A stretch of DNA of 64,000 nt, taken from positions 6,081 through 70,080 of the IMG/VR virus record IMGVR_UViG_3300033121_001585. The stretch is one strand, 5' to 3'. Below, in pieces: positions 9,554 through 63,681 of the stretch. The translations under genes and the position numbers were made by a program. Each line of letters opens with the position of its first letter. The stretch's first letter is position 1. Source of the stretch: a virus. Its lineage: Duplodnaviria > Caudoviricetes. The notes beneath the pieces are model-generated. The model was not told the origin of the DNA and did no database searches. It saw only the letters and a list, made by a program, of their open reading frames with translations.

Positions 9554-10052
9554 GTTTATTAAATGTAGCTATTAACTTTTCTTTTTCTTTAAGAAAATTA
9601 AATTGAGGATTGCAATCCCAACAGACAAAATCTAATTCTATTGCAATTTTTCCTAATTTATCTAATTCTTGAAAAGAACATTTATTCGATGCGAAGCTTA
9701 TTATACCAGTATGATTTAATCTTGTCAATAGAGATTTGAAAAAATCTTTATTTAATATATGAGTATTTATATCATCAAATATTATTAACTCATTTTCTGT
9801 ATCTTCTACACATCCTAATAAGTCTAAACATTCAGAAAAAGGTTTTAAAGTATCGGTAGTAAACACGTTATGAATTTTGTCATATGAATAATATAAAACT
9901 TTGTGGATATCATTTATTTTAATCAGTTTCATCCACATGCATGATTGCCATTCATAATCACTGTATACATCGTGTTCATCTACAGCTTTATATAAAGCTG
10001 ATTCCCATCTAAATTTTAAAAAGTCACTTTCATTATAAGTTTTGCAAAACAT
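9537..10052 (-). CDS. Hypothetical protein
   Basis: 171 aa ORF at the end of the sugar cassette. Confidence 0.7.
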   Translation of the reverse strand: MFCKTYNESDFLKFRWESALYKAVDEHDVYSDYEWQSCMWMKLIKINDIHKVLYYSYDKIHNVFTTDTLKPFSECLDLLGCVEDTENELIIFDDINTHILNKDFFKSLLTRLNHTGIISFASNKCSFQELDKLGKIAIELDFVCWDCNPQFNFLKEKEKLIATFNKHEFYN

Positions 10053-11160: not shown

Positions 11161-12274
11161 TTTTCATCATCCTCGTTTGATGTCTTCCGCCATCAAATGT
11201 AACAGTGTTCAAGATATCTATAAGTTCAAAATGATTAGTAAAACTATTAGGTATGCTAAAGAAATTAGCGGCATTATGTCTAATAGCATACTCAGCAGAA
11301 TATAAATCTGTTACCAACGCTGCTCTAATACCAGGATATTTATTAGCACAAATATTTATTCCCTGTCCGGTTCTACAAAAACCTATTCCAAACCCTTTAT
11401 ACATTTTTATGTATTTTACAACATCATCGACATATAAATTATAATCACAATTTATTTCTGAATTAGCTCCAACATCAACGTAATCAATATTTTTCAGCTT
11501 CATTAATCCTCTTAATCTATATTTATTTACGTAACCAGAATGGTCACAGCAAAGAGCGAATTTTCTAGGAGATACAGTATAAGGAAAAATCGCATCTTTA
11601 AAAAAAGTTAATTCTTCAGGAGTTCCCATTACATATAACTTATCAACTTCTTTATAAGTTACTTTTCCTCCATTTTTTATTATTATATTATATAATGGAC
11701 AAACATATGATTCTTTCTCATATATATACTGAGTAGAATAATTAACAAAAAGAGAACCGCTAGAAAAACAATATACTCCAACAGAAGCTTTATCGCTAAT
11801 TACACGTTTTTCTTCAGTTCTTCTAACAGTTAAACCATCATTTGATTCGATATAACTGTAATTTGGCGAATTAGCTTTGAATACAGTTAAAAAACCTTCT
11901 TGTTTAAAATGAGCAGGGGAGGGTATGTATTTCGGCTCAAAATAAACATCTGGGCAGTAAACAATTAACGGTGTTGAATTACTTATATGATTCTTGGCTA
12001 GAAGAACAGAATCTACAGCACCGGCGGTATTTCCTTTAGATAAAATTAAAGTACATCCAGGATATCTTTGAAAAAGAAATTTTTGAAGACTATCATGCTC
12101 CTCCCTGACTATAAAAAATAAATTACACTCACTATAATCAATAGAATCCATAGACCATTCAATAATACATTTGTCACCGGCAACTATGAGAGGCTTGGGA
12201 GTTGAAAAACCGGCGTCAACCATCCGTTGCCCCTTTCCTGCTAAAGGAACAACCAAATTATATCTTTTATTCAT
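11147..12274 (-). CDS. Sugar nucleotidyltransferase-like domain fused to RpiB/LacAB sugar-phosphate isomerase
   Basis: VPLAGKGQRM...PKPLI, MGTPEEL; then CCDHSG, GFCRTGQGINICANKYPGIRAAL, RHNAAN, FDGGRHQTR. Confidence 0.85.
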   Translation of the reverse strand: MNKRYNLVVPLAGKGQRMVDAGFSTPKPLIVAGDKCIIEWSMDSIDYSECNLFFIVREEHDSLQKFLFQRYPGCTLILSKGNTAGAVDSVLLAKNHISNSTPLIVYCPDVYFEPKYIPSPAHFKQEGFLTVFKANSPNYSYIESNDGLTVRRTEEKRVISDKASVGVYCFSSGSLFVNYSTQYIYEKESYVCPLYNIIIKNGGKVTYKEVDKLYVMGTPEELTFFKDAIFPYTVSPRKFALCCDHSGYVNKYRLRGLMKLKNIDYVDVGANSEINCDYNLYVDDVVKYIKMYKGFGIGFCRTGQGINICANKYPGIRAALVTDLYSAEYAIRHNAANFFSIPNSFTNHFELIDILNTVTFDGGRHQTRMMKNEYR

Positions 12275-47658: not shown

Positions 47659-48210
47659 TTACTCTCTTCTACCGTGATGGTCTATTGGTTTAAAAGTTTT
47701 CTTAGACATAATAGCTGTAACATCAGCTACATTCAATGGTTGAAAATTATGACAATCTACACCAACATCAAATGAAAGAGAATTTGGGTCATCATATAGA
47801 CTACCATGAGAATGTCCATATAGATGATATCTGCCATGATGAGACTTGTCCCATACTCTCATCGCGTAATGAAATAATACAATTGTTTTTCCTTCAGAAC
47901 GAACCTCATATAAATCATATATCCTACTAAACAATTTTCTAAATGACTCATGCTTTAAATGATGTTTATCATGGTTTCCAATAATTAAAACTACATTTGA
48001 GCAATTAATCATTTCTCTGAACTTAATTGTATTTGCTAAACCACCAAAAGCCCAATCTCCTAAATGATATAAAGTATGATTTTTTTGAACTTTTGCGTTA
48101 ATATTATTAGCCATACAAATATTCATCTCATCTACCGAAGAGAATGGTCTATTTGAATATTTAATAATATTTTCATGAAAAGCATGAGTATCTGACGTAA
48201 ACCAATCCAA
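47659..48210 (-). CDS. Calcineurin-like metallophosphoesterase
   Basis: FTSDTH, LGD, GNHD, LFHY, GHSH, DVGVD. Confidence 0.92.
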   Translation of the reverse strand: MDWFTSDTHAFHENIIKYSNRPFSSVDEMNICMANNINAKVQKNHTLYHLGDWAFGGLANTIKFREMINCSNVVLIIGNHDKHHLKHESFRKLFSRIYDLYEVRSEGKTIVLFHYAMRVWDKSHHGRYHLYGHSHGSLYDDPNSLSFDVGVDCHNFQPLNVADVTAIMSKKTFKPIDHHGRRE

Positions 48211-48211
48211 T

Positions 48212-48514
48212 TTAACTTACCTCCGAAAATCCATCAGCAAAACTATTTATATTTGCCTTTGTTTTTACAAAATTCTTGTTATATTTTCTAAAATAGCAAT
48301 AGATATAATCTTTAACAATTTCATTTACATTTTTTTTATCAATTTCTTTATAATAAAAAGAACATATTTCTTTAAAATTATTAACATGTATATAAAAATT
48401 AATTTTCCGATTAAGCACATCATCTATACGTGTTATACTTATTCCTTCTAAATCGGCTATAGAAGATAATTTAGATTCTATTTTCTCACACGCTTCTAAT
48501 AGCTTTTCTTTCAT
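48212..48514 (-). CDS. Hypothetical protein
   Basis: 100 aa ORF. Confidence 0.6.
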   Translation of the reverse strand: MKEKLLEACEKIESKLSSIADLEGISITRIDDVLNRKINFYIHVNNFKEICSFYYKEIDKKNVNEIVKDYIYCYFRKYNKNFVKTKANINSFADGFSEVS

Positions 48515-49800
48515 CCTTGAACCTCATCCCAAGGAGCGGTTTCGCTATTATTAGACTCGTTAAACAAATCCTGTTTTACTTCTGTTTGATGTTCTTCTGT
48601 TGCTGGAGCATCAGCTTTCTTTTTTCCTTTTTTCTTAGGTTCACTAGGAACTTTTTCTTCTTTTACTTTTTCAAGCTTAGGAACAGCAAAAGTTGAAACA
48701 GACATTAGCTCAATCAGACCTAAAGGTATTGTATTCCAATATTCCTTCTCGTCAAGCATTTTCGCAAACATTTTTGAAGAAAAGGTTCCTATTAATGCTC
48801 TCTTAACAGGACCAGAAAAGTTTTTATTAATAGCTTGATTAAATGTAGTTTTAGCAGCTAATACTAATGCTTCAATATCTGAATTATCAGGAGAATTAGA
48901 ATTTTTTAAACAAACTCTGTAAGCAAGCATATTACCTAATGCTACCAACATTGTTGCAGCACCCTTAGTACCATTTGGTGGCGGGCAAAGAGGCATTCCT
49001 GGATTCATTAATTCAGGACATTGAGCCTTAACATAAGTGAAAGCCGTTACAACACAATCTGACAACCATTTTGCATCTTTATTAAATTTTAATGCTATTC
49101 TAGCTCCACCAACTAAAGAGCAAGCAATATCAGAAGCACCTTTTCCGTTTAATGAACTGACAGGTAAACCGGCAGCACCAAGACTATCAAAACGAACTTG
49201 ATTATAAAAAGGCGATTTTTCATTAGAGTTAAGTAATTTAGTTGTTTCATAAGCAAGGAAGAGTGCCTTGCTATCCTTAGACTTAGAAAGTTTTTCCTGA
49301 ATTGTCAAACTGTGTAGATGTGAGCGGTCTACTGGTCTACCTAATTGGAGATTCAAGAAATCTTTTTTCGTATTACCATCTAAGTAGATTAAACAAGTAA
49401 TATCACAATTATCAACTCTTTCCTTATACTTGTCTAACTCCGACAATAAACGTAAAGCCTCTAATCTATGCCCGCCATCCAAGAGAGGAATAGTCTGACC
49501 GTCCTCTAAGCGGAGCGAAACTTTGTTTCCGTCAAAAGTCAACGTCCCTCTTTGCTCATCCCTCAAACCGCAAGAAACCGCTGTTGGCGTAAAGTCGCCG
49601 TTTTCAATTTCAGAAATAATTTTTTTGACATGCGAACCAACCACTTCTCTTTGTTCGCCGCAACCTGTAAGAGCATTAAATTTTTCCGAAGAAACTATTT
49701 TCTTTAAAACTCCGTACTTTTCATTGATAACGATATATTTTCGAAAATATTGTTCGCTTACGCCGAAATTTCTAACTTCTTTAACTGTTTGATACATCAT
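48511..49800 (-). CDS. DGQHR/DndB-like (ParB-related) domain protein
   Basis: QREVVGSHVKKI, LLDGGHRLEAL, FLNLQLGRPV. Confidence 0.7.
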   Translation of the reverse strand: MMYQTVKEVRNFGVSEQYFRKYIVINEKYGVLKKIVSSEKFNALTGCGEQREVVGSHVKKIISEIENGDFTPTAVSCGLRDEQRGTLTFDGNKVSLRLEDGQTIPLLDGGHRLEALRLLSELDKYKERVDNCDITCLIYLDGNTKKDFLNLQLGRPVDRSHLHSLTIQEKLSKSKDSKALFLAYETTKLLNSNEKSPFYNQVRFDSLGAAGLPVSSLNGKGASDIACSLVGGARIALKFNKDAKWLSDCVVTAFTYVKAQCPELMNPGMPLCPPPNGTKGAATMLVALGNMLAYRVCLKNSNSPDNSDIEALVLAAKTTFNQAINKNFSGPVKRALIGTFSSKMFAKMLDEKEYWNTIPLGLIELMSVSTFAVPKLEKVKEEKVPSEPKKKGKKKADAPATEEHQTEVKQDLFNESNNSETAPWDEVQG

Positions 49801-49823
49801 TTTCTCCGTTTATTGTTTTATAC

Positions 49824-50039
49824 TTATTTATTCCAATATTTTCCAATACCTAATGTTTTATCTGCTAAATCAGAAGCATATAAAGCTCTTTGGATTATAT
49901 TCATTTTAGATATTTCTCTTAAAGCTTTTTCCATTCTATCAAGCATTATATCTTTTTTGTTATTAAGAAATATTTCTATTGCTGCGGCTGGATTTTTCAT
50001 TATTATATTTTGTACAAAATTTTGCGTGAAGTTGGTCAA
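49824..50039 (-). CDS. Hypothetical protein
   Basis: 71 aa ORF. Confidence 0.5.
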   Translation of the reverse strand: MTNFTQNFVQNIIMKNPAAAIEIFLNNKKDIMLDRMEKALREISKMNIIQRALYASDLADKTLGIGKYWNK

Positions 50040-50262
50040 ATTTTTCTTTTTCTCTTCTCATTTTGCAATATTCCCAATAATCATCTATCTCTTTTTTTCT
50101 AGCTTCTTTCTTTAAACATTCTTCAGCTTTTGGACACGGTTCTTTAGCTTCTTTTTTATATTCATATACTCCGCAAAAATCACATTCATAAGATGGACTC
50201 CCATGATATGAAGTGTCTAACCATCTATGACTACAATGTACGTCTGTTCTATAATGACTCAT
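49963..50262 (-). CDS. Hypothetical Cys/His-containing protein
   Basis: HCSHRW...CDFCG. Confidence 0.55.
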   Translation of the reverse strand: MSHYRTDVHCSHRWLDTSYHGSPSYECDFCGVYEYKKEAKEPCPKAEECLKKEARKKEIDDYWEYCKMRREKEKFDQLHAKFCTKYNNEKSSRSNRNIS

Positions 50263-51161
50263 AAGAGTTTTCTTACCTTCTGAAGTTCCTTATTTATATT
50301 CTGTAATGTTCTAATTGGCAAATCAACTCTATTGATAGCATCATTGTTGATATGACCATAATGCATTTCCAAAGCTTGCAACAGAAGCTCCCTTATTTTA
50401 ACACGGTCTGGAAGAATTGGCAAGGTTGATTTATGGAAAACTTCCTCAACGGCGAGTTTGCGGACTTCAAATTCTTTCTTTAGTCTATCAAAACTCCATT
50501 CACCGTTTCGAATTGCTTTTAGTTCCTTACTGTTTGTAGTAAGGTTTAAATCTCCAGTAGATAATATTTGTTCAGCTTCGCCTAGCAATCTCATACAATG
50601 ATAACCGAACTTAACATCGTATCCATATTTTTCTATATATTCTAATCTCTTACCTTCTGGTTCTTTACTCTCTAGCTTGTGAAACTGTGAAACTGCATAT
50701 CCTCGCAGTTTGTTCCAACATTGCTTACTCAAAAACATTTTTCTATTATCTCTAATCAAATGTCCGATAGCTGTAATATGCTTAACACAAGTTTCGGGAG
50801 TAAACAAAGAATCTATGATATTAGGGTTATTGTCAAAAAGTAATTGAAAATATCTGACGAGATTAAATATGGTGAAATCAAATTCCTTACCAGAAGATTC
50901 ATCCTGAACATGATGTTCTTGCCACTGTTCAAATTTCGGATAATCATTATCAAATCCTATCAGGTATCCGGCTGTATGGGGAAAGACTATACTTTTTGGA
51001 GGAATGCAAAATCCATAAATATCATAATCTGAAGTTTTATTATTTTTGCTTAGACCGTAAGCACGGCTCCCCATTATTGTTTCATAATGCAGATTTGTTT
51101 TAATAAAATCTGGTGGGGTGATTAATTTGTGTTTCAAGCAGTAATGAACAGAGCTAGCCAT
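50259..51161 (-). CDS. DNA polymerase beta-superfamily nucleotidyltransferase
   Basis: GSRAYGL...SDYDIYG, NPNIIDSLF, KFGYHCMRLL. Confidence 0.88.
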   Translation of the reverse strand: MASSVHYCLKHKLITPPDFIKTNLHYETIMGSRAYGLSKNNKTSDYDIYGFCIPPKSIVFPHTAGYLIGFDNDYPKFEQWQEHHVQDESSGKEFDFTIFNLVRYFQLLFDNNPNIIDSLFTPETCVKHITAIGHLIRDNRKMFLSKQCWNKLRGYAVSQFHKLESKEPEGKRLEYIEKYGYDVKFGYHCMRLLGEAEQILSTGDLNLTTNSKELKAIRNGEWSFDRLKKEFEVRKLAVEEVFHKSTLPILPDRVKIRELLLQALEMHYGHINNDAINRVDLPIRTLQNINKELQKVRKLL

Positions 51162-53961: not shown

Positions 53962-54047
53962 AAAAAAAATAGGAGACTGACAAGGATTGATAAGACGTTT
54001 TTTTACAACCATAAGTAATGTAGTCCTATCGGAGCATTCAGCCTACT
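53962..54047 (-). ncRNA. Y-RNA-like module E with a terminal U tract
   Basis: GGCTGA-ATGC...GATAGGAC-TACATT...GTCTTATC...CTTG-TCAGTC followed by 8 T. Confidence 0.6.
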
Positions 54048-54049
54048 AG

Positions 54050-54180
54050 TGTGGGCGACAGGATTTGAACCTATAACCTAAACTTCTTCAATGTAGTTCA
54101 ATATAGCATTTTCGAGTTGAAACAAAGTTTTAATATTAAACTTTTTTAGTTTCGCTCTACCGGGTTGAGCTACACCCACA
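54050..54180 (-). ncRNA. tRNA-Phe(GAA)-like RNA interrupted by a 56-nt insert (module D)
   Basis: GTGGGTG TA GCTC..GAGC G AAACT [56 nt] TTGAAGA AGTTT AGGTT ATAGG TTCAAAT CCTGT CGCCCAC A. Confidence 0.75.
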
Positions 54181-54185
54181 TAAAA

Positions 54186-54254
54186 GCAACGACAAAAACA
54201 AAACAAAGTTTGGTATCATTAACAGTGATGTACTTCGTTTTAAGCATTCGTTGC
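54186..54254 (-). ncRNA. Y-RNA-like module C carrying an Asn(GUU)-like anticodon hairpin
   Basis: GCAACGA-ATGC..AAAACGAAG-TAC-ATCA-CTGTTAA-TGAT..CTTTGTTTT..TTG-TCGTTGC. Confidence 0.6.
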
Positions 54255-54255
54255 A

Positions 54256-54328
54256 GACGAGTCGTTGGATTCGAACCATAATCTCCAGATAGATTCTGTT
54301 GTTCTGCCAGTTGAACTACCGACCCGTA
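54256..54328 (-). ncRNA. Pseudo-tRNA / tRNA-like module B
   Basis: Acceptor-like stem, D arm GTTC/GAAC, T loop GGTTCGAATCC; anticodon loop only 5 nt and T stem imperfect. Confidence 0.55.
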
Positions 54329-54330
54329 CA

Positions 54331-54395
54331 GTAAGTTGATTCATGAACTACACTACATACATGGAGGCTTGAATTTATCTCTGCCATCAACTTAC
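54331..54395 (-). ncRNA. 5' leader hairpin (module A) of the RNA array
   Basis: 10-bp GTAAGTTGAT/ATCAACTTAC stem starting at the predicted transcription start. Confidence 0.45.
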
Positions 54396-54401
54396 ATCTA
54401 T

Positions 54402-54429
54402 ATCATAACACGGTTTTGACCAAAGTCAA
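54402..54429 (-). promoter_or_regulatory. Sigma70-type promoter of the ncRNA array
   Basis: TTGACT, 16 nt, TGt-TATGAT. Confidence 0.7.
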
Positions 54430-56327: not shown

Positions 56328-57881
56328 TTATATACTTACATCGTGTATAATTTTAGCAAAATCTCTACTATCATTATTTACGAAGTTATCAATTACTTTA
56401 AATACAGAATCAGACCAACCTCCGACATTGAGAACATCCTTGTTTCCTAAAACCTGAGTAGTTGTATATGGTTGAATATCTATACAGACTAACTTAGCTT
56501 TAGGATTATTCTTTTTGAAAACATCCCATTCTCTTTGCATTTGCGTTGACTTTCCATATGATAATCTTCCGCTATTCATCCAACTTTCATTATCACTAAT
56601 AAAGATAACTAAATCAGCTTTAGTTGAATTTAAGTTCAAGTGTCTCAAAGCACAAGAACAATCTGTGCCTCCACCATGCAAAGCTAGTTTCTGAGCATTT
56701 GTCATTAAAGAATCCAATGGATTAAGAACAACGTATTTAACAGATGTATCAAATGGTAATATAGTTGTTCTAGCTCCATTTCTTCTTAATACAGAAGAAG
56801 CAAACAATGCTGCTACTTCAACGCAGGTTGTCTTTGATGTTGAACCTTTTCTTTCTCCTGTAATAGCAGACTCCATACTTCCGCTTGTATCAACGCAAAC
56901 TACTAAATCTTTAGCAAAATCAGGAATGTTATAAGTAGCGTATTCTGCCGCTTTTTGCACAGCTAATTTAATAGCCATGTGAATATTTGGCTCTAAATTT
57001 TGGAATGTTGTAAATAATTGATAAGGAAAAACTTTGCTGTATTTTACCGCATTCTCACTAGCAAGTTTTTCACTAATTACATTTACTAAATGAATATCAT
57101 CAAAAACATTATGTCTAGCTAAAGTATTGATATTCATTCTTAAAGCATTCCAAGGCATATTAACAGCAATAGCTTTCCACTGTTCGTTACTTAATTCTAA
57201 TCCTGTTAATACTCTAAAATCTACGTTTGGAATTTCAGATGTATCGCCAGCTTTAAACTTTTCAAAAAGCTTAATTTGTGCTGGAAGATTTCTTTTCTTT
57301 ACTTCTTTATTACCTAGTAACCAACCATAGAAAGCTTCTTTAGTCTTACTTTCTGGAGTTGGATGTATCATTTTTACAATGTCAGCAAGAGAAGGGTTGT
57401 TGCCAACAGCACCAGAAAATAGTTCGTCTCCGGTTTTTGAAGAAAGAAATTCTTTAATTAAATTCTTCAAACTAGTACCAAAGCTTTTCCGTCCAAACTT
57501 TCCGCTTCTAATAAGCTGAACAAAGTTACGGAGCATCTTTTGGTTGACGACGATTTTTGGAAAAATCTTTTTGACTAATTCTGTGTGACCCTTTCCTGCT
57601 AACCATGCAAGCAGAGCAGTTGGAGTATCCTTCATATTACTTTCAGTTTTTGCATATACAGCTAACTTAGCTATAAACTCTGGTCTGCACTTTTCTGCAC
57701 ATTCAAGAAATTTATCTAATTGTTCGCCAGCAGAAGCATAATAAGTATTATTAAATGTTCCTGTAACAGCTAATTGTGCTAAAGCATTTTCTGCGTCTAG
57801 AGAATAAGCTTTTCCACCAGCTTCATTAACTGTATCAGCTGCTTTTTTATTTGATTCTGTTTTAAAAACCATTTTGTTCAT
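56328..57881 (-). CDS. Ro60/TROVE-domain RNA-binding protein with vWA domain
   Basis: NEAGGKAY, LAQLAVTGTFNNTYY, SLADIVKMIHP, WNALRMNINT, vWA MIDAS VDTSGSM, GGGTDCS, ISDNESW. Confidence 0.93.
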   Translation of the reverse strand: MNKMVFKTESNKKAADTVNEAGGKAYSLDAENALAQLAVTGTFNNTYYASAGEQLDKFLECAEKCRPEFIAKLAVYAKTESNMKDTPTALLAWLAGKGHTELVKKIFPKIVVNQKMLRNFVQLIRSGKFGRKSFGTSLKNLIKEFLSSKTGDELFSGAVGNNPSLADIVKMIHPTPESKTKEAFYGWLLGNKEVKKRNLPAQIKLFEKFKAGDTSEIPNVDFRVLTGLELSNEQWKAIAVNMPWNALRMNINTLARHNVFDDIHLVNVISEKLASENAVKYSKVFPYQLFTTFQNLEPNIHMAIKLAVQKAAEYATYNIPDFAKDLVVCVDTSGSMESAITGERKGSTSKTTCVEVAALFASSVLRRNGARTTILPFDTSVKYVVLNPLDSLMTNAQKLALHGGGTDCSCALRHLNLNSTKADLVIFISDNESWMNSGRLSYGKSTQMQREWDVFKKNNPKAKLVCIDIQPYTTTQVLGNKDVLNVGGWSDSVFKVIDNFVNNDSRDFAKIIHDVSI

Positions 57882-58483
57882 TTGAAGTCTCCTTCAACAA
57901 GATTATGCATGAATTTAATTTCTTCAATAATAAGTAACGCTTCTTTAAAGTCTTGGCAATCTTCGTTTGCTACTTTCTTAAGTAATTGTACACTCTCTGG
58001 AAGATATTTTACAAGCCATTTTTTAGGAACATCTTTATGCCTGCAATCTTTAAGATTATCTTTCCTATCCTTCATCTTAATAAATTTTGAGATATTTGAA
58101 CTTTTTTCTATGTGTTCAAAATCAACTCTCTTTTTTTCTTCTCTTAGAGTTCCTTCTGGCAACCATTTGCTAGGGTTAGTTAATTCCATAACTAAGTTTA
58201 TAACATTATTACCGCAACCGTTTCTGATTTTATCGCAATAGTTGCTGACTAAATGATTTGGAATAGCATAGTCTTCTATAGTATCATGCAACCATGAAGC
58301 CGCTACCATTTCTTTCATTGACTCGCTATCATATGGTACTTTTAATTCCAGCAAAGAATTTTGTACATCTTGTGCTACTCTAGCAACGTGTACAATGTAA
58401 GGAAGTTTACTACCAAACTTCCTATATTGACCATCATGAGCGTATGATGCGATTTCAATAGCTTTTTCAATTATTGATGACAT
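57878..58483 (-). CDS. SpoT/Mesh1-like HD hydrolase (small alarmone hydrolase family)
   Basis: AHDGQYRK, PYIVHVARVA, WLHDTIED, VMELTN, IKMKDRKDNL. Confidence 0.85.
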   Translation of the reverse strand: MSSIIEKAIEIASYAHDGQYRKFGSKLPYIVHVARVAQDVQNSLLELKVPYDSESMKEMVAASWLHDTIEDYAIPNHLVSNYCDKIRNGCGNNVINLVMELTNPSKWLPEGTLREEKKRVDFEHIEKSSNISKFIKMKDRKDNLKDCRHKDVPKKWLVKYLPESVQLLKKVANEDCQDFKEALLIIEEIKFMHNLVEGDFK

Positions 58484-58881
58484 AATTCCTTAAGTCTTTC
58501 TGTAATTTTTAAGAAATCCAAATTTTTAACTATTCTGCAAGCTGGATGATAAGTGTAAATGACGATTACATCATTTACTTGTATTTGGGAAATAACTTTT
58601 TCCGCTTGCTTTCCGAATGCTATTATAGCATCAGGTTTTTGCTCTGTCAATACCTTTTTTACGTGATTTATATCCGGTTTAACTACTGAATCCGGCGAAT
58701 CTCCAACTATAGGAGTGGTATTATCCCACCAAAATTCTATATTTGGGCAATTTTCTGTAAATATTCTTAGTCGTTGCCCGCTACGAGAACGATGTAAAGC
58801 TTTTAACCATGATTCTCTAGGCCAAATGCCTCCAGCATATAATGGTGACCAAGCATTCTGAAGTAGACCTAATACTTTCAT
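58471..58881 (-). CDS. UDG-superfamily-like hypothetical protein
   Basis: KPDAIIAFGKQA and TYHPA. Confidence 0.45.
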   Translation of the reverse strand: MKVLGLLQNAWSPLYAGGIWPRESWLKALHRSRSGQRLRIFTENCPNIEFWWDNTTPIVGDSPDSVVKPDINHVKKVLTEQKPDAIIAFGKQAEKVISQIQVNDVIVIYTYHPACRIVKNLDFLKITERLKELCHQ

Positions 58882-59420
58882 GTATATTTAATACCTAGAT
58901 GAGTTCTTAAAATCCAGAAAAATGCATAGCAATCATAATGATTATCTATACAGACTGTAAACTTCTTATTGTTGTTTTTGTATTCATCAAATTTAAATTC
59001 TGTCATACCTTCACAATAACAATATCCATAGTTTTTATCGTTAAACAAACCTAAGAAATTGCATGTTATTGGAATTGGTGATTCTATAGAAATATTCCAA
59101 TTATGAAAATTGTATCTCATCCATACTTTTACTCCTTCTGCTATTTCCATATAGTAAACAGGACATAGTACACTTTTTGAAGTATGATTAGATGCAACTT
59201 TTACTAAATTTTTGTATTCTTCATATGTTTTTGCTAGAATGCCTCCTAGTTTATCTCTAACAAAAATTATTTGATTCCAAAAACTATCTTTATATTTTAA
59301 ATCATCTTTGGGAGCATTTCTATTAGCCCATTCTTGTAGGAGTTCCATAAGCTTCGCTTTCTTTTTATCTTTGACAACCACAAATATCGCCAGGAGTGTA
59401 ACAGCAACCGCAAGTTTCAC
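58878..59420 (-). CDS. Hypothetical protein
   Basis: 180 aa ORF; true start probably downstream. Confidence 0.6.
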   Translation of the reverse strand: MKLAVAVTLLAIFVVVKDKKKAKLMELLQEWANRNAPKDDLKYKDSFWNQIIFVRDKLGGILAKTYEEYKNLVKVASNHTSKSVLCPVYYMEIAEGVKVWMRYNFHNWNISIESPIPITCNFLGLFNDKNYGYCYCEGMTEFKFDEYKNNNKKFTVCIDNHYDCYAFFWILRTHLGIKYT

Positions 59421-59610
59421 AATATCTTTCTAATTCTTCATAGCCGCTATCCATACTATCATTAATCCAGTTTTGAAGATGGCCATTTTTTTCTTCTTCA
59501 GTCATATTATGCCATTCTTCACTAGAAATGTTCCAATCTTCAGTGTCGAATGTTTCTTCTCTTTTAGATTTGCAATTTGCTCCGTTATTGCACCAGAATT
59601 TCACCCTCAT
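59365..59610 (-). CDS. Small Cys-containing hypothetical protein
   Basis: CETCGCC...CGC. Confidence 0.55.
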   Translation of the reverse strand: MRVKFWCNNGANCKSKREETFDTEDWNISSEEWHNMTEEEKNGHLQNWINDSMDSGYEELERYCETCGCCYTPGDICGCQR

Positions 59611-59854
59611 TGAATTTTATCTCCATTTTTGGTATATCTATTAATTCATGTTCTTCTGGTAGTTTATATATTTTATTATTAATACAAACTAATCCTCTTT
59701 GAATAATCTTTACTTTTTTATCTTCAATTTCGTATAATATTCCTAAAAAGTATCCGTCTGGATAATATAGTTTAATATTTGTTCTTAGAATATTGAAATA
59801 AAAATCTAAGCCAAGATATAAATTATCAGCGTTAATCATATTTGTTTTTCCCAA
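59585..59854 (-). CDS. Hypothetical protein
   Basis: 89 aa coupled ORF. Confidence 0.5.
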   Translation of the reverse strand: MGKTNMINADNLYLGLDFYFNILRTNIKLYYPDGYFLGILYEIEDKKVKIIQRGLVCINNKIYKLPEEHELIDIPKMEIKFNEGEILVQ

Positions 59855-60321
59855 AAAAGACTTTCTTTGGGATTAATCTTAATCAAATTAATTCCGTCTA
59901 ATGTAATATACATATTGTATTGGTCGTCTCCGCAACAGAAATTAAATTTTTTCAATTCAAAACCTTGTCTAATAAGATTATTTGAACTGTAAATATTTAC
60001 TGTATCTGTTATTGCTATGAGTTTTTTAATATTTCTTGCTTGAGCTAGATGTTCTCTTGTTTGAATTAAACTTTCTTGTAAACCTTGTCCTCTATATTTT
60101 GGACTTACATAAGTTGGACCTAAATAAGCAACGCTATTATTTAGATATGAGATTCTTCCAAACCCTCTTAATTCTTCGTCGTTATATTTAACAGTCCATT
60201 CCTTGTCTATGTTTGTATCTACATAATTATATCCGTCCATCTTTTGGGCTATATCTATAACTTGAAGATGATTAAAAATTTTTTCATGAGGCACACAAGC
60301 TATTGTCTGAAATCCTCGCAT
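59836..60321 (-). CDS. GNAT acetyltransferase
   Basis: YVSPKYRGQGLQ motif A; NIYSSNNLIRQGF. Confidence 0.85.
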   Translation of the reverse strand: MRGFQTIACVPHEKIFNHLQVIDIAQKMDGYNYVDTNIDKEWTVKYNDEELRGFGRISYLNNSVAYLGPTYVSPKYRGQGLQESLIQTREHLAQARNIKKLIAITDTVNIYSSNNLIRQGFELKKFNFCCGDDQYNMYITLDGINLIKINPKESLFWEKQI

Positions 60322-60838
60322 AAGTTTTTTCCTTAAATTTCTTTAGGTCAGCAGAGAAGGTCGGGTTGTACGCCTTCCAATCCCTGAAATGTCCAAAGTC
60401 AAAGTGGTGCTGTAGACATAATACCACAAGGTTGCTTTCTGTCAATTCCAGTTCTGGATAAAGATGATAAGGTTTTATGTGATGTACTTGTAAGTTGCTG
60501 CTGGAATTACAGATTGTACAAAAAGGATTTTTTGATACAACTTCATTCCTAACTTTATACCATAAACCGCTTCTCTCACAAATAGTTAAATGAGCAAAAG
60601 AGACAATGCCGAAGCAAGCCTCTTCGATGAGATTTGTTTTTGGGTTAAGGAAGTAGGTCACTTCCCTTGCTAAAGAATAATCCTTCGTCATCCGGTTTTT
60701 CCTCATAAATAAGGGCACAACAGTCGTAAGCGTAACACTTTGGGCAAATTGTATCAGACATAGCAAATTCGTCGCCAAAATATTCTGAGTGTTTGATTTC
60801 TTTGAGTGGAAATTTATGACCACAATCTTCGCATTCAA
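60284..60838 (-). CDS. HNH endonuclease (true start probably near 60691)
   Basis: CTICNSSSNLQVHHIKP...NLVVLCLQHH. Confidence 0.85.
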   Translation of the reverse strand: MNAKIVVINFHSKKSNTQNILATNLLCLIQFAQSVTLTTVVPLFMRKNRMTKDYSLAREVTYFLNPKTNLIEEACFGIVSFAHLTICERSGLWYKVRNEVVSKNPFCTICNSSSNLQVHHIKPYHLYPELELTESNLVVLCLQHHFDFGHFRDWKAYNPTFSADLKKFKEKTYARISDNSLCAS

Positions 60839-61052
60839 TTTCTATAGAGTCATCGTAAGTGATATTATATTTAGGTTGTGGCCCTATGCTGTATACTCTT
60901 TGAATATCAAATTTTATTGAAACTAAGTTTCCTTTTTCGTCATATGTTTTTTCGCATCTTCCAGGAACTTCATAGTAATCCTTTTTGAAACTAGGATTAG
61001 GTTCGCAGGATTTAATTGGTACTAAATGATAGTAATAATCTTTTTCACACAT
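60645..61052 (-). CDS. Zinc-ribbon hypothetical protein
   Basis: CEDCG...CPKC. Confidence 0.6.
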   Translation of the reverse strand: MCEKDYYYHLVPIKSCEPNPSFKKDYYEVPGRCEKTYDEKGNLVSIKFDIQRVYSIGPQPKYNITYDDSIEIECEDCGHKFPLKEIKHSEYFGDEFAMSDTICPKCYAYDCCALIYEEKPDDEGLFFSKGSDLLP

Positions 61053-61251
61053 GTTTATTTTTCCACTTTTCCCGAAAATCTACAGCTTCCTTATATTCTT
61101 CATCTGATATATCCCAACACAAAGAAATCCCACATTTATTACATATTGGAGTTAATCCGCCAGGAATGGTACTTGCTGTAATATGAACTCCCATAGGGCT
61201 ACGCTTTATCCTTTTATTTTTATAAAGCGGTCGGTTTCTCGTAAACCGCAA
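61045..61251 (-). CDS. Small hypothetical protein
   Basis: CNKCG. Confidence 0.45.
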   Translation of the reverse strand: MRFTRNRPLYKNKRIKRSPMGVHITASTIPGGLTPICNKCGISLCWDISDEEYKEAVDFREKWKNKHV

Positions 61252-61601
61252 AAGTTACACGTTCTTGTTTCAGATGAAGAAAAATCAGCAAAATCATTTG
61301 ATGTTTCTGTATATTCTTTATGCTGACACAAATTTTGTAGTTCTTGTAATTTAGCTGAATATTTTTCTAACAAAACTCTATGGTCTACTTGTAATTTATC
61401 AACTTCGCTTCTTAAATGATTTATGTAAGTAAATTCTGTATCTATTTTCCAAATACGACTATTTATAATTTGATAACAATCAAATTGTTTTGCGGTTTTA
61501 AGAGCTTCCTCTTGTTCTTCTGCTTCGAAATCTTTAATAAAATTTTCCCAACCATGACGTTTGTCATTGTTGTTCCAAGCGAACAATAAATACTGCTTCA
61601 T
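61206..61601 (-). CDS. Hypothetical protein
   Basis: YLLFAW...GWENF; C-terminal CQH...CNFCG. Confidence 0.6.
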   Translation of the reverse strand: MKQYLLFAWNNNDKRHGWENFIKDFEAEEQEEALKTAKQFDCYQIINSRIWKIDTEFTYINHLRSEVDKLQVDHRVLLEKYSAKLQELQNLCQHKEYTETSNDFADFSSSETRTCNFCGLRETDRFIKIKG

Positions 61602-61984
61602 ATTCTGCCTTCTCTTTCATATCCAATGCAAAAATGTAAAGGGATTATTCTTTCTCTACCTAAACTTAGTTCTTCTCTTATATCTTCTAATTGTTTAGAT
61701 TTAATTGAGTACCACCAAGCATTACCATTAGTTGACAAAGTTTCTAGAATTATTTTGAATTCTACTTGTTTGTTTTCATGTTTATTCCAGTGAGCAGAGA
61801 AGGCGTCATTGTATTCGTGATGAGAAACTATGGTGATATGCTCATCCCAACTAGGTTTAGTTAATTTTATTAGCCTGAAATTATTGTTGAAAAATAATTT
61901 TCTTAAGTATTTTCCTAATTGATAATCGCATTCCAACCATATCCACCAATTAGGTCGATATTTTATAGTTCCTACGCTTTGCAT
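61598..61984 (-). CDS. 2H phosphoesterase-fold protein
   Basis: Two Hx(T/S/C) motifs: EHITIV and LHFCIG. Confidence 0.65.
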   Translation of the reverse strand: MQSVGTIKYRPNWWIWLECDYQLGKYLRKLFFNNNFRLIKLTKPSWDEHITIVSHHEYNDAFSAHWNKHENKQVEFKIILETLSTNGNAWWYSIKSKQLEDIREELSLGRERIIPLHFCIGYEREGRI

Positions 61985-62251
61985 TTATAATGTTTCACCT
62001 TTTTTCATTTTATAGTAAGACCAATATCCATAGAACCATGCAGCCCCCATCAGATTTTTATCTTCATCTCCAGCATACATACCTGCTGGAGCGTGTGGGT
62101 TACGTGGAGGAAATTCATCTTTAGATGCTGATAAGTATCCTTCAAATGAAGCCTTTAAAAACGGCGTCAGTTTTGCGTAATTTGGATTGTGTTGACGCAA
62201 AAATAATTTGAAGTTTTTATTAGTATCTACTAATCTTAAGTTTTCAACCAT
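61985..62251 (-). CDS. Hypothetical protein
   Basis: 88 aa ORF. Confidence 0.55.
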   Translation of the reverse strand: MVENLRLVDTNKNFKLFLRQHNPNYAKLTPFLKASFEGYLSASKDEFPPRNPHAPAGMYAGDEDKNLMGAAWFYGYWSYYKMKKGETL

Positions 62252-62468
62252 CGTATACTCCTAATTGTCTCCAGCCGCCTCTTCTATCTCTTACTTCTCC
62301 ATGTACTACTAACATATGTGTCTCTTCGAGACACCTTATGCAGTCGCTACAGATATCTTTTTCGCCTTTTATATGTTTAAGTTTTACTAAGTGAATTAAT
62401 TGATGGTCATTTAATTCTTGTTTACAAAAGTCACATGTATAAGTGACTATCATTTTTTCGGTTCTCAT
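62244..62468 (-). CDS. Small zinc-finger protein
   Basis: CDFC...CSDC. Confidence 0.6.
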   Translation of the reverse strand: MRTEKMIVTYTCDFCKQELNDHQLIHLVKLKHIKGEKDICSDCIRCLEETHMLVVHGEVRDRRGGWRQLGVYDG

Positions 62469-63235
62469 GATTTTACCGTTCTACTTGTAAATGAACAATA
62501 TCCATCAAATCTTTGATTTGTTAAAAGTGATTGCATATTGTTTTTTCTTTGTATTTCTAAATGTTCTTTAAATGTTAATAATTTTGTTATTTGCCCACAC
62601 GTTAATAAATCTCTTTTGTATAAATTTGCGCTTGAGCATGTTTGAACACCTATTACACAACATCCCCTATTTTTAGCTATGTATTCGTATATTTTTTCTA
62701 TTTGCGACTCAGAACAATGTTGTAAAACATTTAAACAGAATACAAAATCAAAATTTGATGGGTATGGTAATTTTGAAAAATCTTTTCCGTCATATGTTAT
62801 TGTCTTTTCTTTTGGCACTACTGATTCAGGATGATGATATACGTCTATTCCAACGTAGTTTACATTATACCTGTTTTCTTTATCAAGAATTGAATATAAA
62901 GAACCTAGACCGTATCCTATTTCTAACACATTCAAATCTTTAAGTTCATGATTTAGCCAAAAACTATAAGCGTAAATCGTTTCTAATTGATTTAAACATC
63001 CTGTGTGAATATGCAACATTTGATTAAAATAGTTTATCTGTTTAACAGACAAAGGTTCATTAGATTTAACTCCACCGCAATACGGGTGTCCGTTAAATTT
63101 TTCGCTTGCTTCTTTCCAAAATTCTCCACAGTCTATTTCGTCTGGACCTTTTACTAAAGGGGTGGCTTCGCCACCTTGTAGAAAATTTTGTTTGTATAGT
63201 TCGTATTCTTCTGTAGTAAAATTTAGTAAGCTCAT
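62465..63235 (-). CDS. Class I SAM-dependent methyltransferase
   Basis: VLEIGYGLG, YVGIDV, FDFVFCLNVLQH. Confidence 0.85.
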   Translation of the reverse strand: MSLLNFTTEEYELYKQNFLQGGEATPLVKGPDEIDCGEFWKEASEKFNGHPYCGGVKSNEPLSVKQINYFNQMLHIHTGCLNQLETIYAYSFWLNHELKDLNVLEIGYGLGSLYSILDKENRYNVNYVGIDVYHHPESVVPKEKTITYDGKDFSKLPYPSNFDFVFCLNVLQHCSESQIEKIYEYIAKNRGCCVIGVQTCSSANLYKRDLLTCGQITKLLTFKEHLEIQRKNNMQSLLTNQRFDGYCSFTSRTVKS

Positions 63236-63681
63236 TAATACCTCAAATATTCTCTATGGTAAAGCACAATAGCCCCGGCGGTAGCTACATTATAACTGTC
63301 TGGGTACAAACTGTCAAGCCTAACTGTAGTATAACATCGTTTTAATATTTCTTTTGGTATACCGTTATCTTCTGCTCCTAATAAATAAGAACAAATTTTT
63401 GGATGTCCAAAACCTTTAAGCGGTTTTCCACCTTGTTCTATTGCTACAATACGACAACCTTTTGGTAATGCCTTTTTATATTCTTCAAAAGTCTCATATT
63501 CAAAAAGAGGAATTCTAATTGGCACATTGATTGTATCAGATGATTGAGCCTTATATCTTGCCCCAATAGTGAAAATATAGTTAGCTCCAAGTAAAAAAGC
63601 GGAACGCCAAAGCGTCCCTACATTTACTTCTGATTTAACATTGTAAATCCCTATCGAAAAATAACCGTCTGATTTAATCAT
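63235..63681 (-). CDS. SPOUT (SpoU/TrmH/TrmL-like) RNA methyltransferase
   Basis: NVGTLWRSA, LLGAEDNGIP, SYNVATAGAIVLYHR. Confidence 0.9.
   Translation of the reverse strand: MIKSDGYFSIGIYNVKSEVNVGTLWRSAFLLGANYIFTIGARYKAQSSDTINVPIRIPLFEYETFEEYKKALPKGCRIVAIEQGGKPLKGFGHPKICSYLLGAEDNGIPKEILKRCYTTVRLDSLYPDSYNVATAGAIVLYHREYLRY

Follow-up and report, generated by a model that had tools for sequence, protein, structure and literature searches.

In a 64-kb stretch of viral DNA (hereafter the window) drawn from the IMG/VR contig IMGVR_UViG_3300033121_001585, a 70-kb sequence estimated to be ~47% complete, a tRNA-like gene at 54050-54179 on the minus strand (hereafter the unit) carries a closed Y RNA module, of the kind that binds the protein Ro60, in the place of its anticodon loop. 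Comparison with related loci establishes, at the level of sequence, a conserved structured RNA gene that unites a full tRNA body with a closed Y module and lies next to a Ro60 gene. We consider it likely that the unit represents a Y RNA of the YrlA class laid out in tRNA order, with a free acceptor end, an RNA that RNase P together with 3′ processing probably excises and to which the Ro60 protein of the phage probably binds. An earlier interpretation of this DNA, made from its letters alone and giving no strand (the sequence-only reading), had instead described a tRNA-Phe interrupted at positions 31/32 by a permuted Ro60-binding module, a claim of which, as detailed below, the second half is supported and the first is not.

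The tRNA body of the unit is sound. The Rfam tRNA model (RF00005) covers 54050-54179 on the minus strand from end to end over model positions 1-71, scoring 47.2 bits (gathering score 29; E 6e-7 for the whole window), and its alignment leaves 63 nucleotides (nt) between the anticodon-stem strands instead of a 7-nt anticodon loop. By direct reading the acceptor stem has 7 base pairs (bp) and the anticodon stem 5 bp, a D arm and a T arm are both in place, the discriminator is A and no CCA is encoded. Every element listed by the sequence-only reading is present. The positions that make tertiary contacts in tRNA are intact (U8, A14, the D-loop GG, the T-loop UUC, and A15 with U48), and the T and D arms are able to form a tRNA elbow, as in the tRNA-like domain of YrlA. 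Direct reading of the strand revealed no T arm upstream of the unit and no D arm downstream of it, which makes its order unambiguous: acceptor 5′ strand, D arm, Y module, T arm, acceptor 3′ strand. ARAGORN does not call the unit under default settings; with introns allowed it reports a tRNA-Phe(gaa) with a 56-nt insert from position 33 (window 54092-54147), exactly the parse proposed earlier, in which deletion of these 56 nt restores a 7-nt loop with the anticodon GAA. The order proposed for the insert is also found on the minus strand and reads, 5′ to 3′, a 9-nt strand beginning GUUU (stem 2′), a linker with CUUUG at its end, a hairpin of 4 bp with a 5-nt loop, AUGC, the 9-nt complement of the first strand with GAAC at its end (stem 2), and UACAU. 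The anticodon arm thus appears to be prolonged by a predicted Ro60-binding module consisting of stem 2, a conserved internal loop, and stem 1 closed by the 5-nt loop. The parts of the unit are given below, with support drawn in part from two related loci, L007, which holds a second unit of this kind, and L161, whose 9660-9797 is the closest classical YrlA.

54050-54179, minus strand: the whole unit, a tRNA-ordered Y RNA, i.e., a cloverleaf with a closed Ro60-binding module for an anticodon loop (Rfam tRNA, ARAGORN intron mode, single-sequence covariance model and L007 homologue)
54173-54179, minus strand: acceptor stem, 5′ strand, 7 nt (7 of 7 pairs with 54051-54057; three compensatory pairs relative to L007)
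54154-54170, minus strand: D arm, 4-bp stem and 9-nt loop with GG (Rfam alignment; stem identical in L007 and L161)
54148-54152, minus strand: anticodon-stem equivalent, 5′ strand (pairs with 54080-54084; three compensatory pairs relative to L007, four across the three sequences)
54133-54141, minus strand: stem 2 of the Y module, 3′ strand, starting GUUU (pairs with 54096-54104; first four pairs invariant, outer pairs covary)
54123-54132, minus strand: linker ending CUUUG, equivalent to the CCUUG conserved in Y RNA 3′ strands (CCUUG at the same place in L007 and in the classical consensus)
54110-54122, minus strand: stem 1 closed as a hairpin, 4 bp with a 5-nt loop, where the 5′ and 3′ ends of ordinary Y RNAs lie (two of four pairs compensatory relative to L007; no other partner strand nearby)
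54105-54109, minus strand: AUGC(U), tail of the GAAUGC-type 5′ strand motif (the classical YrlA profile aligns from here; motif cluster)
54096-54104, minus strand: stem 2, 5′ strand, ending GAAC (profile, three-way table, pair counts)
54091-54095, minus strand: UACAU, conserved after stem 2 in all Y modules of the window's Y-module family (GAAC-UACAU also in bacterial YrlA arrays)
54085-54090, minus strand: variable linker UGAAGA, which with the last U of UACAU makes up the proposed GAA anticodon loop (not conserved: CCAA in L007, AGCUAA in L161)
54080-54084, minus strand: anticodon-stem equivalent, 3′ strand (pair counts relative to L007)
54058-54074, minus strand: T arm, 5-bp stem and UUCAAAU loop (Rfam alignment; pair counts)
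54050-54057, minus strand: acceptor 3′ strand and discriminator A, no encoded CCA (direct reading; Rfam alignment)

The identity of the insert emerges from comparison with ~90 Ro60 loci gathered from IMG/VR and metagenomes. The RNA arrays downstream of Ro60 in these loci follow a common grammar, in which stem 1 leads through a GAAUGC-type 5′ strand into stem 2 (with GAAC at its end) and UACAU; an apical part comes next, and then a GUUU-type stem 2 return, CUUG and the stem 1 return. Many of their units have as apical part a tRNA-like domain that runs from a T arm through a closed acceptor stem-loop to a D arm. Three such units of locus L143 score 64-80 bits with the Rfam YrlA model (RF02553), and two of these scores exceed the gathering score of 69, which identifies units of this layout as YrlA-class. 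A profile of sequence only, built from 63 distinct classical YrlA units of these loci, matches the native unit in two pieces in swapped order, with model positions 9-66 falling on unit positions 71-127 and model positions 74-111 on the first ~42 nt. When the unit was re-permuted in silico, by cutting it in the stem-1 loop and closing the acceptor with a 7-nt linker, it gave one profile match spanning model positions 10-111 at 43.7 bits; the L007 unit behaves like the window unit in its native form and also gives a single match, of 54.5 bits, when re-permuted. All parts of YrlA are therefore recognized as homologous by this profile once their order is restored. RF02553 itself reaches 16.5 bits on the unit (E 1.1), far from its gathering score and over 54126-54223 only, as is expected of a circularly permuted RNA. 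Covariance models are blind to circular permutation, and family models will therefore miss RNAs of this kind while tRNA scanners call them intron-bearing or broken tRNAs. A YrlA ends in its Ro60 stem and runs through T arm, closed acceptor and D arm, a topology that the unit does not have. The earlier proposals that the insert is a circularly permuted Ro60-binding module, and that the unit has a topology opposite to that of YrlA with a free acceptor end, are thus upheld by the swapped profile matches, the single match after re-permutation and the order of the arms, as well as by the covariance model match described next.

A covariance model made from the window unit alone with its proposed structure was run on 0.8 Mb of related loci, where it finds L007 7864-7992 at 68.1 bits (E 5e-11), with ordinary tRNAs all at or below 54 bits. 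The L007 unit, which is present in two IMG/VR contigs, has the same architecture and lies just downstream of a Ro60 gene whose product is ~42% identical to that of the window; as in the window phage, it adjoins a Y module on the downstream side of Ro60. In the alignment of the two units 98.5% of the cells pair, and both sides have changed in 12 of the 34 pairs, whereas controls in which the partners were slid by 1-3 columns leave 32-47% paired with 0-2 doubly changed pairs. L161 shares the six-A linker and has a 5-bp anticodon-type stem of different sequence, and a three-way table of the window unit, L007 and L161 shows compensatory changes in the acceptor, the anticodon stem, stem 2, stem 1 and the T stem. 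The discriminator is A in the window unit and U in L007, which argues against a conserved aminoacylation identity. As a separate observation, five loci from metagenome-assembled genomes of Thermoguttaceae (planctomycetes; L329, L364, L388, L400 and L406) hold YrlA arrays with a D arm and T loop close to those of the L007 unit, a likeness that hints at the host range of the L007 phage lineage.

The unit belongs to an array of RNA elements in a region where all genes are on the minus strand. The Ro60 gene lies 2.1 kb upstream on the same strand, so that the unit, as is typical of YrlA, is encoded next to Ro60, and the closest named relative of its product is the Ro60 of Myxococcus phage Mx1 (49% identical). 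Downstream of Ro60 come a tRNA-Met, a few small open reading frames and then the array itself (~53962-54429, ~470 nt), which reads along the minus strand as a promoter match, a tRNA-like element (element B), Y module C directly following it, the unit, Y module D and a U tract. The features around the unit are as follows.

56328-57881, minus strand: phage Ro60 gene, 517 amino acids, TROVE and Ro60-vWA domains, the presumed partner protein (Pfam PF05731 and PF25045)
54402-54429, minus strand: sigma-70-like promoter match upstream of the array (10 of 12 positions, with TG; a consensus match only)
54258-54325, minus strand: tRNA-like element B, tRNA order, 5-nt anticodon loop and weak 3-bp T stem (Rfam tRNA 28.1 bits, just below threshold)
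54186-54254, minus strand: free-standing Y module C, ending 6 nt before the unit (pattern match and direct reading)
53975-54043, minus strand: free-standing Y module D, starting 6 nt after the unit and followed by the U tract at 53962-53974 (direct reading; weak RF02553 match of 18.8 bits)

The motif AATGC-N(8-13)-TACAT occurs four times in the window against 1.4 expected on both strands, and three of these occurrences fall on the minus strand in a 230-nt part of the array; with this clustering, chance does not account for the resemblance between the insert and the Y modules on either side. Element B probably serves as a handle for processing and not as a tRNA. A blastn search of the array against GenBank phages gave no match. 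Genes for RNA-acting or repair-type proteins flank the Ro60 locus on the minus strand (window 47659-51161 and 57878-63681), among them an HD-domain protein overlapping the Ro60 start, GNAT, HNH, a class I methyltransferase, a SpoU methylase, an RlaP-type nucleotidyltransferase, a metallophosphoesterase and a weak 2H phosphoesterase match. Y module C has a feature of its own, a hairpin (54215-54229, minus strand) right after UACAU whose 7-nt loop, CUGUUAA, is an Asn-like anticodon loop. The same loop is present in nine distinct Y modules from at least eight Ro60 loci, with the variants CUGUAAA and CUGUAAC, and its stems covary (CAC/GUG, CACA/UGUG, ACC/GGU, AUCA/UGAU); the simple Y modules in this family thus seem to present a mimic of an anticodon arm.

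Several observations weigh against the interpretation that we favor. The form is unambiguous in two independent lineages only, the window phage and the L007-type contigs, and as a result the covariation rests on only two or three sequences; moreover, the alignment of the window and L007 units was fitted to the structure of the covariance model. The AU-rich window unit taken alone has a folding energy of -23.1 kcal/mol in the proposed structure versus -30.0 kcal/mol in its minimum-energy fold, which is not Y-like, and we have therefore relied on comparative evidence. Lastly, the Ro60-binding module is a conserved helix with the 5′ strand GNCGAA(N)G (PMC4201824), and the corresponding strand of the unit, GAAAAUGC, differs from this published motif at two positions, for which the partner strand compensates; with a motif so degenerate, binding of the unit by Ro60 would not be assured.

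If the unit is a tRNA-ordered YrlA, its life might proceed as follows. The array would be produced as one transcript from the promoter-like site at 54429-54402. In M. smegmatis, RNase P cuts the acceptor loop of YrlA, which receives CCA in vivo (PMC4201824), and by analogy the 7-bp acceptor and T arm of the unit would make it an RNase P substrate, with the cut expected just 5′ of 54179. Processing at the 3′ side would trim the RNA to the discriminator at 54050, after which CCA would probably be added, and these same events would free Y modules C and D. The resulting RNA of ~130 nt would bind the phage Ro60 through its closed, conserved Y helix, leaving a tRNA-shaped handle with a free 3′ end that could be offered to tRNA-binding factors of the host or the phage, in line with what has been proposed for YrlA (10.1101/312249). 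A stronger version, in which the unit is a true hybrid RNA through which the phage brings Ro60 to the translation or tRNA-repair machinery, or offers a Ro60-protected decoy to anti-phage tRNA nucleases, strikes us as unlikely; were it correct, the unit would be a living intermediate between tRNA and YrlA and would bear on the proposal that Y RNAs originated from tRNA.

A more modest role, to which we give slightly less credence still, would be that of a processing signal only, in which the tRNA-like body recruits RNase P and the 3′ enzymes to release Y RNAs C and D while the embedded module has no separate function. The layout lends itself to this idea, as a Y module flanks the unit on each side at a distance of 6 nt, tRNA-like element B precedes module C, and locus L002 also alternates tRNA-like elements with Y modules. 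Element B, however, demonstrates that a plain tRNA-like element suffices for such punctuation, and the architecture of the embedded module has been kept, through compensatory changes, in two phages that share only ~42% identity in Ro60; conservation of this kind is not expected of a passive spacer.

The possibility that the unit is an intron-bearing tRNA-Phe(GAA), from which the 56-nt Y-like insert at 31/32 is removed by cleavage and ligation, leaving a decoding tRNA and perhaps also releasing a Y-like RNA of its own, possibly as a circle, is the one raised by the sequence-only reading, and we now regard it as very improbable. It draws on the ARAGORN parse described above, on a restored loop with U33 and a purine at position 37, on the discriminator A, on a cloverleaf that is otherwise sound, on the idea of Wang et al. 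that some YrlA RNAs are possibly processed towards canonical tRNAs (10.1101/312249), and on the nearby genes of RNA-modifying or repair type (SpoU, RlaP and the weak 2H match). The loop on which the tRNA-Phe assignment depends nevertheless falls in a linker that varies in both length and sequence, being UGAAGA in the window, CCAA in L007 and AGCUAA in L161, and longer, shorter or absent in other classical units. ARAGORN parses the L007 unit quite differently, as Val(aac) with a 37-nt insert at another position, and we estimate a chance of about one in five that an AU-rich segment of this kind shows both U33 and a purine at 37. Among ordinary tRNAs, those closest to the body are for His, Pro, Ile, Met, Leu, Gly and Val, with none for Phe. 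The description of the gene as an interrupted tRNA-Phe is not supported.

The proposal of a new short tRNA intron fares no better. By inspection there is no bulge-helix-bulge, as the junctions at 54147/54148 (in an A run) and 54091/54092 (in UACAU) lack a 4-bp helix between 3-nt bulges. The Pfam families of the splicing endonuclease (PF01974), RtcB (PF01139) and the Rnl2-type ligase (PF09414) were not found in the 70-kb, ~47% complete contig, nor was there a match there to PF09511 (T4 Rnl1) in a search that had no working control, and Rfam scans of the window returned no intron family. We know of no bacterial splicing system described as cutting at position 31/32. The catalytic core of a group I intron takes up a few hundred nt, and the earlier judgement that 56 nt is too short for one is sound. 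The insert is itself conserved and covaries as a Y module. Under our preferred interpretation of the unit as a tRNA-ordered YrlA, the GAA triplet would be incidental, the unit would not be a decoding tRNA and the insert would not be an intron.

That the unit is a decayed, functionless tRNA gene that acquired part of an adjacent Y module through recombination is scarcely credible: its AU-rich sequence and repeated anticodon-stem strands (AAACU- and AGUUU-type copies) do permit alternative folds, and the proposed fold is not the one of minimum energy, but all six helices are kept with 12 compensatory pairs relative to L007, the tertiary positions of the tRNA body are intact, and the unit occupies the same place by a Y module downstream of Ro60 in both phages.

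Among known RNAs the unit is most like YrlA (RF02553; PMC4201824; 10.1101/312249), with which it shares a Ro60 neighbour, a conserved D stem, a Ro60 module joined at the anticodon-stem position, and the full set of building blocks (stem 1, the GAAUGC-type strand, stem 2 with GAAC, UACAU, a variable region, T arm, acceptor, D arm, the GUUU-type strand and CUUG). It differs in that YrlA ends in stem 1 and has its acceptor closed by a loop, whereas the unit ends in its acceptor and has stem 1 closed as a hairpin; its anticodon stem of a full 5 bp is a further difference. YrlA folds as a tRNA and resembles a circularly permuted tRNA, without a free CCA end; the solved structure is a near-perfect tRNA mimic whose authors stress this missing end as the main difference, and who speculate that some YrlAs are processed towards the canonical tRNA form (10.1101/312249). 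A classical YrlA that has been cleaved also presents an open tRNA-like acceptor on a Ro60-bound tRNA mimic, but this open form is a two-piece RNA produced by cutting, while the unit encodes it as one chain. The D. radiodurans Y RNA Yrn1 likewise has tRNA-like features, with an order of T and D arms unlike that of YrlA in the model of Chen et al. and, between these arms, a stem-loop at the anticodon-arm position with a 5-bp stem and a 6-nt loop (PMC4201824). As we read that model, the Ro60 stem and the RNA ends of Yrn1 are at the acceptor and its anticodon-like hairpin is short and closed, in contrast to the unit, which carries its Ro60 module on the anticodon arm. Among tRNA-like Y RNAs three topologies can thus be distinguished: Yrn1, with tRNA order and the Ro60 stem at the acceptor; YrlA, permuted, with the Ro60 stem and the RNA ends at the anticodon-stem position and a closed acceptor; and the unit, with tRNA order, a free acceptor and an anticodon arm that bears a closed Ro60 module.

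Other tRNA-shaped RNAs are less similar. Introns in tRNA genes are of the bulge-helix-bulge type in archaea and eukarya and of the group I type in bacterial anticodon loops. Intron-bearing tRNA genes resemble the unit in having extra sequence in the anticodon-loop region of a sound cloverleaf; the unit differs from them in having no bulge-helix-bulge, 56 nt of insert rather than hundreds, a site at 31/32 rather than 37/38, an unconserved restored loop, and an insert that is a conserved protein-binding module. Circularly permuted tRNA genes, found in red algae and one archaeon (cited in 10.1101/312249), provide a precedent for tRNA-shaped RNAs in both gene orders that are interconvertible by processing, but they are precursors of decoding tRNAs and need a splicing endonuclease and a ligase. 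Transfer-messenger RNA (tmRNA) and viral tRNA-like structures also join a tRNA mimic with a free CCA end to a non-tRNA module; these are aminoacylated and active in translation or replication, whereas the unit is known from sequence alone. The b7a-tRNA of Burroughs and Aravind (2016) is, as described in 10.1101/312249, a predicted tRNA-like RNA linked to RNA-repair genes and sometimes next to Ro60; compared by that description only, it shares with the unit tRNA order and a linkage to repair genes, and no Band-7 gene was found in the contig of the unit. A tRNA-ordered YrlA was not found described in the literature by a search that did not reach several key reviews or the original b7a-tRNA paper. 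If our interpretation is correct, a YrlA with a free acceptor end, until now the subject of speculation as a processing product, would be encoded directly by the window phage. The unit would then offer a natural single-chain substrate with which to ask whether the tRNA handle of a Y RNA acts through its 3′ end (in CCA addition, charging, or the action of EF-Tu, RNase P or RNase Z), whether Ro60 tolerates a closed stem 1, and whether the tRNA, YrlA and Yrn1 layouts are derived from each other through duplication and truncation. Duplication and truncation of a tandem pair of classical units is one possible route to the order of the unit; the reverse route is equally possible, and the data give no direction.

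The form is rare, with two lineages among the ~90 Ro60 loci as against 63 classical units. Two specific pattern scans of IMG/VR returned only the L007-type contigs and chance matches in coding sequence, with no further lineage, and of two looser patterns the first gave, among the matches listed, mostly unrelated tRNA-like loci and the second chance matches. A scan of 185,579 species genomes yielded 83 matches, 40 of which were automatically classified as classical YrlA arrays; those of the other 43 that were inspected by eye are arrays of classical type or chance matches in coding sequence, with no unambiguous tRNA-ordered unit. Apparent permuted units in L140, L143, L145, L150, L200 and other loci are junctions of tandem classical YrlA units, and were rejected on the grounds that their closed acceptor stems and own stem-1 partners pair better. 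L149, L162 and L178, where adjacent repeats share acceptor sequences, are ambiguous.

Two long-loop tRNA-like genes, L002 12126-12244 and L067 11225-11380, were not counted as homologues because the classical YrlA profile sees no Y module in them. L002, the locus with the Ro60 closest to that of the window (52% identity), has three tRNA-like genes (11649-11731, 11797-11888 and 12126-12244) that encode CCA, have 15-, 26- and ~50-nt anticodon loops and alternate with simple Y modules in a layout like that of the window. In L067, ~10 Y modules, several of them classical YrlA, stand in a row downstream of one phage Ro60 (6660-8710, minus strand), and the separate tRNA-like gene upstream of Ro60 (11225-11380, minus strand) carries an insert of ~88 nt with GAUGC and GCUACAU and no recognisable Y module.

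Arrays of units on a Leu-like tRNA scaffold in L057, L100, L101 and L107 were set aside because no Ro60 was found in their mostly incomplete records. These arrays (L057 6246-8332, L100 7952-9422, L101 12867-13287 and L107 12133-12467; also L025 and L070) are in viral contigs and comprise up to five units that share one acceptor, D arm and T arm and differ over 20-60 nt in the anticodon and variable region, some of the units containing AAAACUACAU. Finally, a Y unit at L143 1838-1965, which scores 19.3 bits with the Rfam YrlA model, apparently has stem 2 joined to its tRNA-like domain at the D loop. Its UACAU runs into GGUAGAGC, followed by a closed 5-bp anticodon-like arm, the T arm and a closed acceptor, with the 5′ strand of the D stem coming last, and it may represent yet another topology.
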